The notes under the pieces were generated by a model. The model searched no databases. It was not told the origin of the DNA and worked only from the letters and a program-made list of their open reading frames with translations. This document shows, one piece after another, positions 3,975 through 27,649 of a DNA stretch of 56,455 nucleotides. Made by a program: the position numbers and the translations under genes. The first letter of the stretch is position 1; every line of letters starts with the position of its first letter. The stretch lies in IMG/VR virus record IMGVR_UViG_3300045988_124381; one strand, 5' to 3'. The DNA is from a virus.

Positions 3975-4349
3975 CAAATATACCCTGCTGACGGACTGAA
4001 CGGCAACCGATAGCGAGAATCGGGCAGGGTTCTACTTGATTGGTTCTTTGACATGATGGAAATTTTAGGCTTACCGTTAAGCCTGACGTGAAACGGACGA
4101 CTGAGTAGCGATAACGGCTGGGTGAAAAGAGTATGAGTAATGGACTGCACTAAGCAAACGCAGCATACGAATCACACAGATAACAAAAACGACTTATACG
4201 ATTGCAGGTGGCCGTAGGCCGGCTACAAAGACAATCTTCACTGATTAGACACCAGCAAGAACTATATATCCCGTGGCTTATCAAAGGTTTGGTAAGCAGT
4301 AAGGCAACCACCGGAACGCCCACGGGGACGAATTTTAAAACGCACGATT

Positions 4350-4844: not shown

Positions 4845-4920
4845 TGGCAGATAGTTCAGGCGGTAGAACACCATGTATGGGTTAGCATGGAAGTCACGGG
4901 TTCAAGTCCCGTTCTGTCAG
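4845..4920 (+). tRNA. tRNA-like gene with canonical acceptor, D and T arms but an enlarged anticodon loop (8-10 nt); isotype undetermined
   Basis: tggcaga ta gttc aggcggta gaac a ccatg tatgggttag catgg aagtc acggg ttcaagt cccgt tctgtca g; U1:A72 and G73. Confidence 0.6.
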
Positions 4921-4942
4921 CAAACAATCAAATACTAAAACT

Positions 4943-9381: not shown

Positions 9382-9485
9382 GGTATCGTGGCGGAACTGG
9401 TAGACGCTATGCTCAACGATTGGACGGTCAATCCATAGATGCAAAGAACTGACAACTCATGCAGGTTCGAATCCTGCCGGTACCA
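9382..9485 (+). tRNA. tRNA-like element with Leu-type D arm and canonical T arm/acceptor but a 53-nt non-canonical central region
   Basis: ggtatcg tg gcg gaactggtaga cgc ... gcagg ttcgaat cctgc cggtacc a. Centre holds nested helices ctatg/catag and gattg/caatc and a ctcaac stretch. Confidence 0.45.
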
Positions 9486-20710: not shown

Positions 20711-20740
20711 CAGAATGTTTTTAATGGGGATAAAGTCCCT

Positions 20741-20989
20741 TTGTTTGAATTTTTATGTCTAACAAATTTAAATTTTAAAGGCCGAGTCAGAAGAAGAACA
20801 AAATCAGGTTGGGAAATAGCTCGACAAGCCGACAGATTAGCTCAACAGCGTTATGGAAGTAACTTTGACAATCCTAATAATCTTGTAAATAGGATTGCAG
20901 GCAGGTATCTTGGAAACTTCAATAGAAATGGAACCAGTTGGAATACACAAGTTTCAAAACGTATTTACATGGGACTTAATGATGGGTAA
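20741..20989 (+). CDS. Small Arg-rich protein ending RIYMGLNDG (start codon uncertain; frame is open from 20711)
   Basis: No in-frame ATG near the 5-prime end; paralog of 27650-27835. Confidence 0.45.
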   Translation: MFEFLCLTNLNFKGRVRRRTKSGWEIARQADRLAQQRYGSNFDNPNNLVNRIAGRYLGNFNRNGTSWNTQVSKRIYMGLNDG

Positions 20990-23130: not shown

Positions 23131-23997
23131 ATGAAGACATTAAAAGAACAAGTAGAAGAAATCAAGAACATGAAAGGTTCTAAGTCAGCAAAGAAAGCAG
23201 CTTTCGTCAAGTTGGGTTTGAGAAAGTACGAAGTTGAACTTCTTATGTCTGAACTGCCTAAGACTATCAGAGAAACGCACAAGTTTACTTTTGGCGTTGA
23301 GATTGAATGCCTGGTAGCTGCAAACCTTATGCGTGAATGTGCTACAAGAAATGAAATGCCTTTTCGCTATGAGGGCTACAACCACACAGACAACAACCAC
23401 TACTACAAGTTTGTATCTGATTCTTCTATTAGAGGTGAAAATCCTATAGAATGTGTTTCACCGGTTCTTACTGGTAAGGCAGGTATGAAAAGCCTAGAAA
23501 CCTGCTGCAAAGCTTTAAATGAGGCAGGTGCACAAGTGAATATATCTACTGGTTTACACGTTCACATAGGGGCTGCAAGCCTCTCAGATGAAGCTTATAT
23601 CAATGTTTTCAAGAACTATCAGAAGCTAGAGAGAGTGATTGATACTTTCATGGCACGATCAAGACGAGCAAACAACAGTCAGTGGTGCAGAACACTTCAA
23701 GGTTTAAGCTTTGAATGTTGCATTACTAAGCATGATGTTCTAAGTATTATGAGAGGTAATAGATATTTTAAGGTTAATGCCTGCTCTTATGCTCGTCACA
23801 ACACGATAGAGTTCAGGCAGCATCAAGGTTCTACAGATTTCGAGAAAATTTCTAACTGGGTGAATTTCTGTGCTAAGCTAGTAGCTTGGTCTAAGAAGAA
23901 CGTACTAAGTTCAGAGGTTTTTTCAATTGCAGAAATACCTTTCTTGACAGCGAAAGAAAAGTCATTCTTTAAATCACGTGCTGAGGTTCTTGCATGA
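23131..23997 (+). CDS. Amidoligase_2 family (glutamine-synthetase-like COOH-NH2 ligase)
   Basis: FGVEIE, IECVSPVL, STGLHVHIG, NTIEFRQHQGS signature blocks. Confidence 0.8.
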   Translation: MKTLKEQVEEIKNMKGSKSAKKAAFVKLGLRKYEVELLMSELPKTIRETHKFTFGVEIECLVAANLMRECATRNEMPFRYEGYNHTDNNHYYKFVSDSSIRGENPIECVSPVLTGKAGMKSLETCCKALNEAGAQVNISTGLHVHIGAASLSDEAYINVFKNYQKLERVIDTFMARSRRANNSQWCRTLQGLSFECCITKHDVLSIMRGNRYFKVNACSYARHNTIEFRQHQGSTDFEKISNWVNFCAKLVAWSKKNVLSSEVFSIAEIPFLTAKEKSFFKSRAEVLA

Positions 23998-24527
23998 ACC
24001 TCACACGATATAATTTGCTTGATATGTGCTGTATTATTTATAAACCAAAAGGTGTCCAGATGCCAACGCTGGACATCTTAAATAAGGTTCAGAGAATCAA
24101 TCATCATGGTTATGGCTTTGTTTCTTCTAAGCATAGATATAAGACTATGGATTATCAAAAGTTTTTAGTTCATCTTTCAAAGGTGGGTATTGAAGAAGAA
24201 TGTATCATTCACATGAGGTGGGCAACACATGGTTCTAAGTGTAGAAAGAACTGTCACCCGTTTGTCGAGAATGGCGTTTATTTTGCTCACAATGGTGTTT
24301 TGCCTATTCAGTCAGTAAACGATATGACAGATAGCGAAATCTTCTTCAGAAATCAAGTTTACCCTCTTGTAATGAAATATGGGTATGAAGCAAAGGTAAC
24401 AGAATCCATGATGATGGCTGTCGCTGGCAGTTCTAAATTCGCCATGATGTACAAAGGCAAAGTAAAGCTATATGGTGATTATACGAAATTGAACGGTGTA
24501 TATTATTCTAATTTAAGATGGCTATGA
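23994..24527 (+). CDS. Class II (Ntn) glutamine amidotransferase
   Basis: MCCIIYK (Cys nucleophile after Met at 24024, or after a 10-aa propeptide if ATG 23994 is used), NHHGYGF, HMRWATHGS, NCHPF, FAHNGVL, TDSEIFF. Confidence 0.75.
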   Translation: MNLTRYNLLDMCCIIYKPKGVQMPTLDILNKVQRINHHGYGFVSSKHRYKTMDYQKFLVHLSKVGIEEECIIHMRWATHGSKCRKNCHPFVENGVYFAHNGVLPIQSVNDMTDSEIFFRNQVYPLVMKYGYEAKVTESMMMAVAGSSKFAMMYKGKVKLYGDYTKLNGVYYSNLRWL

Positions 24528-25494: not shown

Positions 25495-25502
25495 TATCTT
25501 TG
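25495..25502 (+). promoter_or_regulatory. -7 box TATCTTTG immediately upstream of the tRNA
   Basis: Ends 12 nt before tRNA position 1. Confidence 0.45.
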
Positions 25503-25514
25503 TATAGATGCCAT

Positions 25515-25587
25515 CGCGGGTTAGAGCAGTGGTCAGCTCGTCACTTTGACTTGGTGAAGGCCGGTGGTTCGAATCCACCACCCGCAA
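25515..25587 (+). tRNA. tRNA with anticodon GAC (Val) on an initiator-tRNA-like scaffold
   Basis: cgcgggt ta gagc agtggtca gctc g tcact ttgactt ggtga aggcc ggtgg ttcgaat ccacc acccgca a. C1xA72 mismatch, A11:U24; close to E. coli tRNA-fMet outside the anticodon arm. Confidence 0.75.
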
Positions 25588-25618
25588 CGAAATATTAACT
25601 TATAAATTTTACACGATT

Positions 25619-25978
25619 ATGGAAATACTTACGCTTATCATCAAACAGAAGTTCTTTGACGAAATCTTGTCAGGTAAGAAAACTCAAGAGTTCAGAGAGA
25701 TTAGACCTACAACTCAGAAGAAATACTGCCAACTGGATGCCGATGGTTATTGTGTCGAAATAGACGGCATTTTACAGCCCCGACACTATGATGCTATTCA
25801 GTTCTTTGTAGGCTACAATAAAGACAGATCCAGTGCATTGGTTGAAGTCAAAGACGCAAAGATCGAATTGTTTGAAGATGAGAATCACAATTTAATTGAG
25901 TACACCTGTCAGGGCGAAATATACTTGGCCGCACAGGTCGTTTATGACCTTGGCCGAGTGATAGAAAAGCATGTTTAA
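25619..25978 (+). CDS. ASCH (PUA-like) domain protein
   Basis: ILTLIIKQKFFDEILSGKKTQEFREIR N-terminal ASCH pattern. Confidence 0.6.
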   Translation: MEILTLIIKQKFFDEILSGKKTQEFREIRPTTQKKYCQLDADGYCVEIDGILQPRHYDAIQFFVGYNKDRSSALVEVKDAKIELFEDENHNLIEYTCQGEIYLAAQVVYDLGRVIEKHV

Positions 25979-25999
25979 CCCTTTAAAACTTGTTGTTGA

Positions 26000-26161
26000 G
26001 TCAGAACAAACAGAAGTACATTTTCAACGAGTAACTACCGTGGGGGCCGTACTGGATTGACAGACCCTAACACCGGTAGAACTTCACAGGGTGGGAGATA
26101 TATTACCCGCCGGCAGCAGTATTATAACGTCCGCACAGGACTTGGTATGAGTGGCGGATAA
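26000..26161 (+). CDS. Arg/Gly-rich small ORF with no ATG/GTG start; first sense codon is GTC
   Basis: Open from GTC 26000 (right after in-frame TGA) to TAA 26159-26161, which shares an A with the next ATG. The only canonical alternative start is TTG 26057. Confidence 0.35.
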   Translation, partial: VRTNRSTFSTSNYRGGRTGLTDPNTGRTSQGGRYITRRQQYYNVRTGLGMSGG

Positions 26162-26832
26162 TGACACTGCAAGAGAGAACATACAGCTATATTGACCTCG
26201 TCAGACAAAAGACTGACGGGGTTTTGCTGTTTCTGTCCTTGGGTAAGGATTCTTTAGTATTACTGGATATGATCTATCCGAAGTTTGAAAGGATAGTCTG
26301 CGTGTTCATGTACTTTGTTAAAGGTTTAGCGCACATCGAAAGATGGGTTGGATGGGTAAAAGCTAAATATCCGAAGATAGAGTTTGTTCAGGTGCCCCAC
26401 TGGAACCTTACTTACATTCTTCGTGGTGGGATGTATTGCGTGCCAAACCCGAAAGTAAAGCTTCTGAAACTGGCCGATGTGGTGAAGGCCATGCAACTCA
26501 AATACGGCCTTTACTACACGTTCTTGGGTATGAAGAAGGCCGACGGCATGAACCGTCGTCTTATGCTGAAAGGCTATGAAGTCAACGGATACGAGAACAA
26601 CAGTATGTGCTATCCTTTGGCAGATTGGACGCAGAAAGACATCCTGTCCTACATGAAGCAGAACGGGCTGCCGGAGCCTGTCCGGTATTCGCTGAAGGCC
26701 AGTTCGGGTGTAGGGTTCAATTTGGATTGTATGTTATGGCTGGAGAAGAACTACCCGCAGGACTTACAGAAAATTTACAAGGTGTTCCCAATGGCTGAAA
26801 GAATTCTTTGGGAACATAAACAAAAGCAATAG
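26161..26832 (+). CDS. PAPS reductase / PP-loop ATP pyrophosphatase family protein
   Basis: LLFLSLGKDS PP-loop, GMKKADGMNRR, CYPLADWTQKDILSYMKQNGLP. Confidence 0.8.
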   Translation: MTLQERTYSYIDLVRQKTDGVLLFLSLGKDSLVLLDMIYPKFERIVCVFMYFVKGLAHIERWVGWVKAKYPKIEFVQVPHWNLTYILRGGMYCVPNPKVKLLKLADVVKAMQLKYGLYYTFLGMKKADGMNRRLMLKGYEVNGYENNSMCYPLADWTQKDILSYMKQNGLPEPVRYSLKASSGVGFNLDCMLWLEKNYPQDLQKIYKVFPMAERILWEHKQKQ

Positions 26833-26834
26833 GT

Positions 26835-27575
26835 ATGGAACTGAGCAAATACATAAAGAGTGAATCGGTGGAACTTAACCGTTCCGCCATTCATTTTGCA
26901 GATTATAACCCCAGGAAACTTTCTGAGGAAGCCCGAAAGACGTTAAAACGGGGTATCAAGAAGTTCGGGCTGGTTGGAGGTATCGTAGTCAACAAGCGGA
27001 CTGGCCTTACTGTCGTGTCCGGCCACCAGCGCCTGACGGTTATGGATGAGCTCCAGAAATTCCCGGAAAACGATTATAGAATCCGTGTCGATGTGATTGA
27101 CGTGGATGAGAAGCAGGAAAAAGAGTTGAATATCCTGATGAACAACCCGAACGCACAAGGAGCTTGGGACTATGACGCTTTGGCTCGATTAGTTCCGGAC
27201 ATTGATTACCAGGATGCAGGTCTGACTGCCGCCGATCTGAATATGATTGGCTGTGATTTTCTTCTCCAGACAGAAGAAGAAAGTTCTATCGCGGAAGCTT
27301 TGGAGGATATGATGGCACCGGTAACGGAGCAGAAAGAAGCCGAGAAAGCCGCCAAGCAGATGGAAAGAGCCGAGAAGGTGGCCCACATGAAGGAAGTCAA
27401 GCAGCAGGTGAAAGATGCAGCCCAGAAGCAGGCACAAGATATGGACGCTTATCTCATGCTTTCCTTCGATACGTTTGAAGCTAAGGCAGCTTTTTGTGAA
27501 AGATTTGGATATGATCCATATTCCAAGTTCATCAAGGGTGAGGTATTCGATGAACAGGTAGAAAGAATTGAATGA
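26835..27575 (+). CDS. ParB/Srx N-terminal (ParB-like nuclease) domain protein
   Basis: ADYNPRKLS...LKRGIKKFGLVGGIVVN...VVSGHQRL. Confidence 0.75.
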   Translation: MELSKYIKSESVELNRSAIHFADYNPRKLSEEARKTLKRGIKKFGLVGGIVVNKRTGLTVVSGHQRLTVMDELQKFPENDYRIRVDVIDVDEKQEKELNILMNNPNAQGAWDYDALARLVPDIDYQDAGLTAADLNMIGCDFLLQTEEESSIAEALEDMMAPVTEQKEAEKAAKQMERAEKVAHMKEVKQQVKDAAQKQAQDMDAYLMLSFDTFEAKAAFCERFGYDPYSKFIKGEVFDEQVERIE

Positions 27576-27649
27576 GAAATTAAAACAAGGAGGGATGCCG
27601 AGTTAGAAGGAAAACTTATAGCCAGTTGTATCAACAGTCAAGACGAATA

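Follow-up and report, generated by a model that had tools for sequence, protein, structure and literature searches.

The window, a 56,455-nt stretch of viral DNA (IMG/VR record IMGVR_UViG_3300045988_124381), contains a tRNA gene with a GAC anticodon. It is followed on the same strand by an ASCH-domain gene, a small Arg/Gly-rich ORF, a PAPS-reductase-like gene, a ParB-N-like gene, and a second small basic ORF, and a third small basic ORF lies upstream (Table 1). The ParB-N assignment is based on a weak Pfam match (E = 0.0064, 17 bits, cut-off 26.3); in the Bacteroides phage BS-TP2, the annotation of the homologue reads "ParB-like nuclease domain protein". ARAGORN called a tRNA-Val(GAC) at 25515–25588, and the Rfam tRNA model scored 55.8 bits for 25515–25587. 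The gene does not encode CCA. Boxes resembling TAnnTTTG recur 5' of the tRNA in Bacteroidales relatives. A preliminary description of this DNA had reported a tRNA with its own −7 box here, and the two programs and the reading of the sequence bore this out.

Table 1. Coordinates of the tRNA locus and of the related small ORFs in the window.
Feature	Position	Strand	Remarks
Third small basic ORF, 67 aa	20786..20989	+	First codon GTC; context GCCGA-GTC-AGA
Bacteroidota-type −7 promoter box, TAnnTTTG (TATCTTTG)	25495..25502	+	12 nt upstream of the tRNA 5' end; putative function
GAC tRNA	25515..25587	+	Initiator-type acceptor and D stem, Val anticodon
ASCH-domain gene	25619..25978	+	Starts 31 nt after the tRNA
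Start context GTTGA-GTC-AGA	25995..26005	+	A(−1) and G(−2) complementary to U37 and U38
Small Arg/Gly-rich ORF, 53 aa	26000..26161	+	First codon GTC; stop overlaps next ATG (TAATG)
PAPS-reductase-like gene	26161..26832	+	ATG overlaps small-ORF stop
ParB-N-like gene	26835..27575	+	Weak Pfam ParB_N match
Second small basic ORF, 77 aa	27602..27835	+	First codon GTT; context GCCGA-GTT-AGA; stop overlaps next ATG (ATGA)

As read from the window, the acceptor of the tRNA is CGCGGGU/ACCCGCA, with an unpaired C1×A72, the pairs G2:C71 and C3:G70, and the discriminator A73, and the D stem (GAGC/GCUC) contains A11:U24. In E. coli, an unpaired 1:72, A11:U24, G2:C71, and C3:G70 are the determinants of the formyltransferase, and a 1:72 mismatch blocks EF-Tu binding. 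The anticodon arm is UCACU-UUGACUU-GGUGA. It carries GAC in place of the CAU of tRNAfMet, and A29:U41, C30:G40, and U31·G39 in place of the three G:C pairs (29:41, 30:40, 31:39) that E. coli initiators need for P-site selection. The loop bases U32, U37, and U38 are unusual. The C1×A72 mismatch, A11:U24, the GAC loop, and the missing G:C pairs had all been pointed out in the preliminary description and were all found again. The ValRS identity elements A35, C36, and A73 are present, and G45 is also conserved. Elongator tRNAs are marked by a purine at position 37 and a pyrimidine11:purine24 pair; neither A11:U24 nor U37 is a feature of theirs, and it is these two that are conserved here.

At least 47 distinct sequence variants of this tRNA occur in Bacteroidota phages and prophages. 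Scanning IMG/VR with the anticodon arm gave at least 120 matches, and the CGCGGG...CCCGCAA acceptor was present in all matches listed. A scan with the 5' part yielded more variants with covarying anticodon stems (UCACU/GGUGA, CUACU/GGUAG, UCGCU/GGCGA, and CCAGU/ACUGG), and the loop was YYGACUU in all GAC variants found. Pairs were counted on an alignment of 28 GAC members and three CAU tRNAs (n = 31). In this alignment, 95.1% of the cloverleaf cells were paired as compared with 77.6% in shuffles, both sides had changed in 14 of 21 pairs, and the anticodon and T stems were 100% paired. Pairs 6:67 and 7:66 covaried freely. A11:U24, C3:G70, and G4:C69 were each found in all 31 sequences and G2:C71 in 30, and A73 was invariant. 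Position 1:72 was unpaired in 31/31, mostly as C×A, and as C×U in the Chryseobacterium phages and L166; the Watson–Crick pair required by EF-Tu was thus present in 0/31. The preliminary description had named a G1:C72 Val tRNA in relatives among the observations that would speak against its proposal, and what the relatives keep is an open 1:72 beside pairs that covary.

None of the aligned GAC members had a GGG/CCC anticodon stem. Leaving aside copies of the family itself (in BS-TP2 and in unannotated records), all annotated full-length matches in the phage collection were tRNA-Met. When the anticodon arm is set aside, one variant (L011) shares ~91% identity with L162, a CAU tRNA of canonical appearance that has a GGG/CCC stem (hand count on the alignment). 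BLAST against E. coli genomes returned only partial tRNA-Val matches, which covered the anticodon and T arms and left out the acceptor. With a Met-like body and anticodon and T arms resembling tRNA-Val, the tRNA therefore looks like an initiator body with a Val-type anticodon arm. ARAGORN overlooked one divergent member (L259/L263), in which the D and T loops are altered and the acceptor and anticodon arm are kept. The alignment indicates that the tRNA is a conserved, functional family keeping the initiator determinants, and comparative genomics as a whole strongly supports a natural variant of the initiator and phage tRNAs.

The GTC of the 26000 ORF directly follows an in-frame TGA. The preliminary description was correct in that GTC is the first codon after an in-frame stop, 21 nt past the preceding gene, and in that the stop is fused to the ATG of the next gene. 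It had also stated that the frame is free of ATG; there is one at codon 50 (26147), and a TTG at 26057. For a paralogue delimited as 20741–20989, an in-frame GTC had been noted at 20735. The homologous start of this paralogue is a different GTC, at 20786. The GTT-start paralogue at 27602 had been missed; AGGAGG is found 5' of it at 27588–27593. The motif GYNGAGTYAGA occurs exactly three times on the two strands of the window, at the starts of these three ORFs. Its expected count is 0.28, and three occurrences were reached in 0/100 shuffles.

The Arg/Gly-rich frame was conserved in all lineages, in differing frames relative to ASCH. The first conserved codon of the type-1 ORFs was GTC in 44 of 45 distinct sequences and GTT in one. 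The codon directly upstream was an in-frame TGA in most of these ORFs and AGA in the largest group. Several ORFs contained no ATG, GTG, or TTG at all (L124, L133, L151, L307, and L310). Upstream of the first canonical start, the variable sites at codon positions 1/2/3 numbered 3/4/14 and 6/5/11; many of the changes were synonymous, and codon 1 was invariant. This third-position variation from codon 1 onward disposes of the concern, raised in the preliminary description, that the frame might not be conserved. It argues that the small ORF is a real gene, selected at the protein level from codon 1 onward. A single genome has as many as four paralogues, all small and basic; they begin V-R-R-K... 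and end ...G-L-S-N-G. The small proteins matched no family in Pfam or PHROG. AlphaFold2 predicted the 53-aa protein to be mostly disordered, with one short C-terminal helix (pLDDT 53.6).

Other routes to these proteins were ruled out. Readthrough or frameshifting from ASCH into the small ORF is incompatible with the occurrence of all three relative frames among the lineages and with the intervening stops. Reinitiation after the in-frame TGA fails because this stop is missing from the largest group (AGA) and from the paralogues (CGA or AGA), and no upstream ORF ends there. An out-of-frame CTG or TTG start within GCTGA or GTTGA lies in the wrong frame, and its −3 position varies (T/C/A).

The 127 unique proteins of the family started with GTC (80), GTT (37), or ATG (8), and never with GTG; two apparent GTA starts were mis-calls, leaving a true GTA count of 0. 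GTY starts thus accounted for 117 of the 127, and the tRNA-bearing phages do not conform to the alternative raised in the preliminary description, that the frame always begins at TTG or ATG. The internal Val codons of the same ORFs were GTA (120), GTT (115), GTC (37), and GTG (31), so that GTA and GTG made up about half. A G34 anticodon reads C and U only, and the restriction to GTC and GTT starts fits it for this reason.

The start context is G-C-N-G-A-GTY-R. Among the 117 GTY ORFs, −5 was G in 109, −4 was C in 102, and −2 G and −1 A were each found in 116; the +4 position was always a purine. About half of these ORFs had a GAGGA(A)-like element at about −12 to −7. The near-invariant A(−1) is complementary to U37 of the tRNA, and the base that the preliminary description had counted as a weakness is thereby matched to the mRNA. 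In E. coli, position 37 of tRNAfMet pairs with mRNA position −1, as demonstrated with A37G and A37U variants (PMC10018350). The U37:A(−1) helix could be extended by U38:G(−2) and U33:R(+4), neither of which varies among the relatives. Pairing of mRNA positions −3 to −5 with G39, G40, and U41 was ruled out: the Chryseobacterium tRNAs have A39, C40, and U41, and yet the start context remains GCTGA.

The order tRNA, ASCH, small ORF, and PAPS reductase was kept at every locus with enough sequence to judge, even where the identity of the ASCH proteins fell to 33%. No terminator was found in the 31-nt and 21-nt gaps between the tRNA, ASCH, and the small ORF; therefore, the tRNA and its client mRNA are probably made together. 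In two of the three small ORFs of the window, the stop overlaps the ATG of the next gene (TAATG and ATGA), which suggests that such ORFs are translationally coupled to their downstream neighbors. The PAPS-reductase-like gene is probably coupled to the 26000 ORF in this manner.

A profile search for the small protein yielded 158 homologues. Full-length homologues from other phages had M-A-R-R or M-A-K-K at the column of the window's V, and the entries from tRNA-bearing phages had been shortened to internal ATGs. Synteny was kept on the contigs with ATG-start versions. Among these, no tRNA was found upstream of ASCH in L192–194, L196–197, L432, L433, L435, and L245/L283. At exactly the same locus, L195 carries a tRNA-Met(CAU) with C1×A72, and its ORFs start with ATG. 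Of the three initiator G:C pairs, this CAU tRNA lacks two, 29:41 and 31:39; its loop is CUCAUAA. The paralogues of L195 and L196 also start with ATG, and the homologue of the 27602 ORF in a tRNA-less relative begins MARRQKTYKQLY as compared with VRRKTYSQLY in the window. A scan for CAU-type tRNAs upstream of ASCH gave at least 120 matches; those listed were unrelated phage tRNA-Met genes, none with a PAPS-reductase homologue in the fetched stretches.

The preliminary description had proposed looking for co-occurrence of the tRNA with GTC-first ORFs. The GAC tRNA and a GTY-first ORF were found together at 219 of the 245 loci with a PAPS-reductase homologue; tRNA-less relatives use ATG, with few exceptions. 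Two loci that appeared to have no tRNA carried one of the L259/L263 type. After clustering at 60%, all nine GTY-start type-1 clusters (222 loci) had the tRNA just upstream. Six ATG-start clusters were scored as tRNA-free by a strict pattern; one of these (L207) includes loci with a homing-endonuclease-linked GAC copy. Two further ATG-start clusters carry the tRNA.

The exceptions fall on both sides. L278 keeps GA-GTY type-2 ORFs and has no tRNA in the 28 kb examined (contig 147052, which is ~22 kb longer), and L279 and L280 have none within ±10 kb. L278–L280 look like recombinants, in which a left arm lacking the tRNA has been joined to a right arm of tRNA-bearing ancestry. In L434, the tRNA is accompanied by a type-1 ORF that starts with ATG, and another ORF, shortly after the PAPS-reductase gene, starts with GTC. 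L436 also carries the tRNA, and the 8 kb seen of it contain no GTY ORF. The L212 group has the tRNA beside an ATG-start type-1 ORF and keeps other GTY ORFs. Here, an HNH homing-endonuclease gene lies inside the tRNA gene, such that the 5' half of the tRNA is followed by the endonuclease gene and a second, complete tRNA copy. This second copy is intact with C1×A72 in one sub-variant; in the other, it is a degenerate copy that has C1:G72, a mismatch in the T stem, and an ATG-start type-1 ORF as its neighbor.

With these comparative data, which support the earlier hypothesis of an initiator tRNA licensing GUC starts, we consider it likely (roughly three chances in four) that the tRNA is a phage-encoded initiator re-targeted from AUG to GUC and GUU. 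The other explanations appear less likely than a dedicated initiator. GTC and GTT could be deliberately weak starts read by the host fMet-tRNA, with an unrelated role for the tRNA. A naturally IF3-repressed GTC start is documented for the sigR gene (PMC5472188), the GAGGA-like element in about half of the ORFs could help weak initiation, and L278–L280 keep GTY ORFs with no tRNA nearby. However, weak reading would leave unexplained that GTG was never used in the 117 unique ORFs, that the anticodon matches the start codon, and that A(−1) matches U37. The ATG starts in the tRNA-less relatives and in the CAU-tRNA relative also oppose this explanation, and a sigR-like start without a dedicated tRNA does not agree with the cognate tRNA found upstream in 9/9 GTY type-1 clusters. 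We regard it as unlikely.

Still more doubtful is the role of a normal, though odd, elongator tRNA-Val that would help to decode GUC and GUU in phage genes. The ARAGORN label, the local resemblance of the anticodon and T arms to E. coli tRNA-Val, and the frequent attribution of phage tRNAs to codon compensation all agree with such a role. Against it stand the 1:72 position, unpaired throughout although the adjacent pairs covary, the non-elongator A11:U24 and U37, and the linkage of the tRNA to GTY-first ORFs. Compensation would call for a cognate codon over-used by the phage, and GTC is the rarest of the four Val codons in the window's long ORFs (17%). An anti-defense tRNA, with a loop altered to escape a host anticodon nuclease against tRNA-Val or tRNA-fMet, is very improbable: the loop is indeed unusual, but the initiator acceptor determinants, the GTY first codons, and the A(−1) context are left unaccounted for, and we do not know HicAB and HigB, encoded near the tRNA in BS-TP2, as tRNA anticodon nucleases. 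Changes in phage anticodon loops have been proposed to evade tRNA-targeting defenses (PMC10264068).

For the dedicated initiator, we infer the amino-acid identity, the formylation, the initiation itself, and the regulatory purpose of the GAC tRNA. The tRNA would be transcribed from its own −7 box, probably on one transcript with three downstream genes (ASCH, the small ORF, and the PAPS-reductase gene), from which it would be released by processing. The host ValRS would charge it with valine through A35, C36, A73, and G45, and the host formyltransferase would formylate it through the 1×72 mismatch, G2:C71, C3:G70, and A11:U24. It would then enter the P site on GUY codons in the G-C-N-G-A-GUY-R context, where U37, and perhaps U38 and U33, would extend the codon–anticodon helix to A(−1), G(−2), and R(+4). 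The main mechanistic gap in this reading is the absence of the three G:C pairs. The extended U37/U38 pairing or the Shine–Dalgarno-like element may offset it. Since the host fMet-tRNA reads GUC and GUU very poorly, efficient synthesis of the small Arg-rich proteins, three per genome here, would require the phage tRNA. The same may apply to genes with an ATG that overlaps a GTY-ORF stop.

We lean, with some reservation, toward a natural orthogonal initiation channel. In such a channel, a formylatable, initiator-derived Val-tRNA(GAC) would recognize GAGUY sites through a helix of 4–6 bp (from U33, G34, A35, C36, U37, and U38) and gate the small proteins and the coupled late genes. If so, these small Arg-rich proteins and late genes depend on the expression of the phage tRNA and are invisible to the host initiator.

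To our knowledge, natural initiation with a dedicated initiator, cellular or phage, always uses Met-tRNAi, and non-AUG starts are near-cognate readings by the same tRNA. Full-text literature searches turned up engineered analogues of a GAC initiator tRNA but no natural one. The GTC and GTT starts together with the GAC tRNA point to a natural private start codon not previously described. The canonical bacterial and phage tRNAfMet(CAU) shares C1×A72, A11:U24, A73, and the overall body with the phage tRNA; it differs in having CAU, the three G:C pairs, and A37, whereas the phage tRNA has GAC, none of these pairs, and U37. The closest engineered analogue is the E. coli tRNAfMet G34C36 of the RajBhandary laboratory, which has the same initiator acceptor stem, C1×A72, and GAC anticodon. 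This tRNA is valylated and formylated, and bacteria, archaea, and mammalian cells can all use it to initiate at GUC (PMC2268962). It is artificial and keeps the three G:C pairs and A37; in contrast, the phage tRNA occurs in nature, combines a Val-like anticodon stem with U37/U38 matched to the conserved GA before the start codon, and also has GUU sites. A synthetic i-tRNA(AAC)/GUU pair in E. coli likewise combines a private Val start codon with a dedicated initiator, orthogonal to the host starts. It is synthetic and has the anticodon AAC, unlike the natural GAC tRNA, and its Val formylation and deformylation are inefficient (bioRxiv 10.1101/2021.05.25.445580).

Two further systems are related in part. 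The Streptomyces sigR gene has a natural GTC first codon, as do the phage ORFs, and no dedicated tRNA (PMC5472188). It is a single cellular gene, weakly read by the normal initiator and repressed by IF3, whereas the phage ORFs adjoin a cognate tRNA. In the A37:U(−1) quadruplet pairing of tRNAfMet (PMC10018350), position 37 is likewise complementary to mRNA −1; in the phage system, the pair is U37:A(−1), is near-invariant, and may extend to U38:G(−2) and U33:R(+4). If our reading is true, the GAC tRNA would be the first initiator tRNA from nature that carries an amino acid other than methionine and has a start codon to itself, and it would be a natural counterpart of the synthetic orthogonal initiation systems. 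An initiator without the three G:C pairs would show an alternative way of working, possibly through pairing of positions 37/38 with mRNA −1/−2. It would also add a new layer of phage gene control, in prophages of Bacteroides that are abundant in the human gut.

We found the tRNA in genomes of Bacteroides, Phocaeicola, Parabacteroides, Mediterranea, Alloprevotella, Hallella, Ca. Azobacteroides, and Chryseobacterium. In these genera, a GCTGA-GTC ORF lies downstream of it wherever the sequence allows a view. The tRNA is also present, unannotated, in the cultivated phage BS-TP2, which was detected in 33.5% of samples (PMC12694917); tRNAs are not mentioned in the paper describing this phage. Gene callers restricted to ATG, GTG, and TTG miss or shorten GTY ORFs. 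The gp53 protein of BS-TP2 is annotated 11 codons short, and the widespread 42-aa 'MNGAGAGG...' entries miss 14 conserved N-terminal codons. In BS-TP2, the HicAB and HigB genes near the tRNA locus are of the toxin–antitoxin type.

The locus upstream of the ASCH gene, which neighbours the initiator-like tRNA-Val(GAC) (GAC tRNA) on its downstream side, carried a different tRNA in one relative (L195). This tRNA-Met(CAU) has the C1xA72 mismatch and the anticodon stem UUAGC/GCUAA, which has only one of the three G:C pairs of initiators. ATG is the start codon of all small ORFs in this relative. The combination of a C1xA72 CAU tRNA with ATG starts throughout suggests that the lineage originally had its own AUG initiator. 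A divergent member of the GAC tRNA family occurs in L259 and L263. Its D loop reads AGUCAGUCA and its T loop GGCAGAG; G18 G19 and T-psi-C are both absent, and the acceptor and anticodon arms are intact. The two loops give the impression of a joint replacement of the elbow contacts. ARAGORN made no call for this tRNA.

Coordinates of features in the window and in related loci
Feature	Location	Strand	Remark
DUF2693-FD RNA motif (RF02926)	window 3982-4030	+	full-length match, 76 bits
Second odd tRNA	window 4845-4921	+	Rfam tRNA, 49.7 bits
tRNA-like gene, 104 nt	window 9382-9485	+	Rfam, 36.5 bits
Amidoligase_2 (E = 1.7e-28) and weak GATase_4 gene	window 23131-24527	+	1 kb upstream of GAC tRNA
tRNA-Met(CAU), C1xA72	L195 3038-3110		upstream of ASCH; relative from GCA_020026285.1
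Divergent GAC tRNA	L259 2363-2436		also L263
HNH homing-endonuclease ORF (~170 aa)	L212 1834-2426		within GAC tRNA gene
Shortened ORF annotation	L001 6526-6720		BS-TP2 gp53; shortened likewise: P0052 and similar entries

The GAC tRNA gene was interrupted by an HNH endonuclease gene in L212 and also in L123, L281, L282, and L284-L290. The 5' half of the tRNA, which extends to about position 44, comes first; next is the endonuclease gene, and beyond it lies another copy of the tRNA, this one complete. Among the sub-variants of this complete copy, one is degenerate, having C1:G72 and a T-stem mismatch.

The recombinant phages L278, L279, and L280 retain type-2 ORFs (small basic paralogs of the ORF that follows ASCH) with GA-GTY starts. 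No GAC tRNA was found over 28 kb for L278 (which L441 extends) or within ±10 kb for L279 and L280. These phages could be natural knock-outs, or the tRNA could be supplied in trans or lie elsewhere on the contig.

Public annotations of the GTY-start ORFs are shortened, beginning at internal ATGs. The gp53 annotation of the cultivated Bacteroides phage BS-TP2 is 11 codons short, and the 42-aa 'MNGAGAGG...' entry, which was seen on 609 contigs, is missing 14 conserved codons at its N-terminal end. When positions around the starts were tabulated, about half of these ORFs were preceded, at a distance of 7-8 nt, by GAGGA or AGGAGG, which resemble Shine-Dalgarno sequences (in the window, at 27588-27593). 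Such elements were unexpected in Bacteroidota, which are not known to make much use of Shine-Dalgarno sequences.

L195, L432, and L433, which are relatives of the ATG type, have the Amidoligase_2/GATase_4 pair as well. All the small basic proteins share a conserved G-x-x-x-G C-terminus; therefore, as pure speculation, such a ligase could have them as its substrates or tags.

For the second odd tRNA of the window, ARAGORN returned 'tRNA-?(Pro|Thr)'. In this call, the anticodon loop has 8 nt and the anticodon has four bases (GGGU), resembling +1 frameshift-suppressor tRNAs. The ARAGORN model of the 104-nt gene, obtained with introns allowed, is a tRNA-Leu(AAG) whose anticodon loop contains an insertion of 21 nt.
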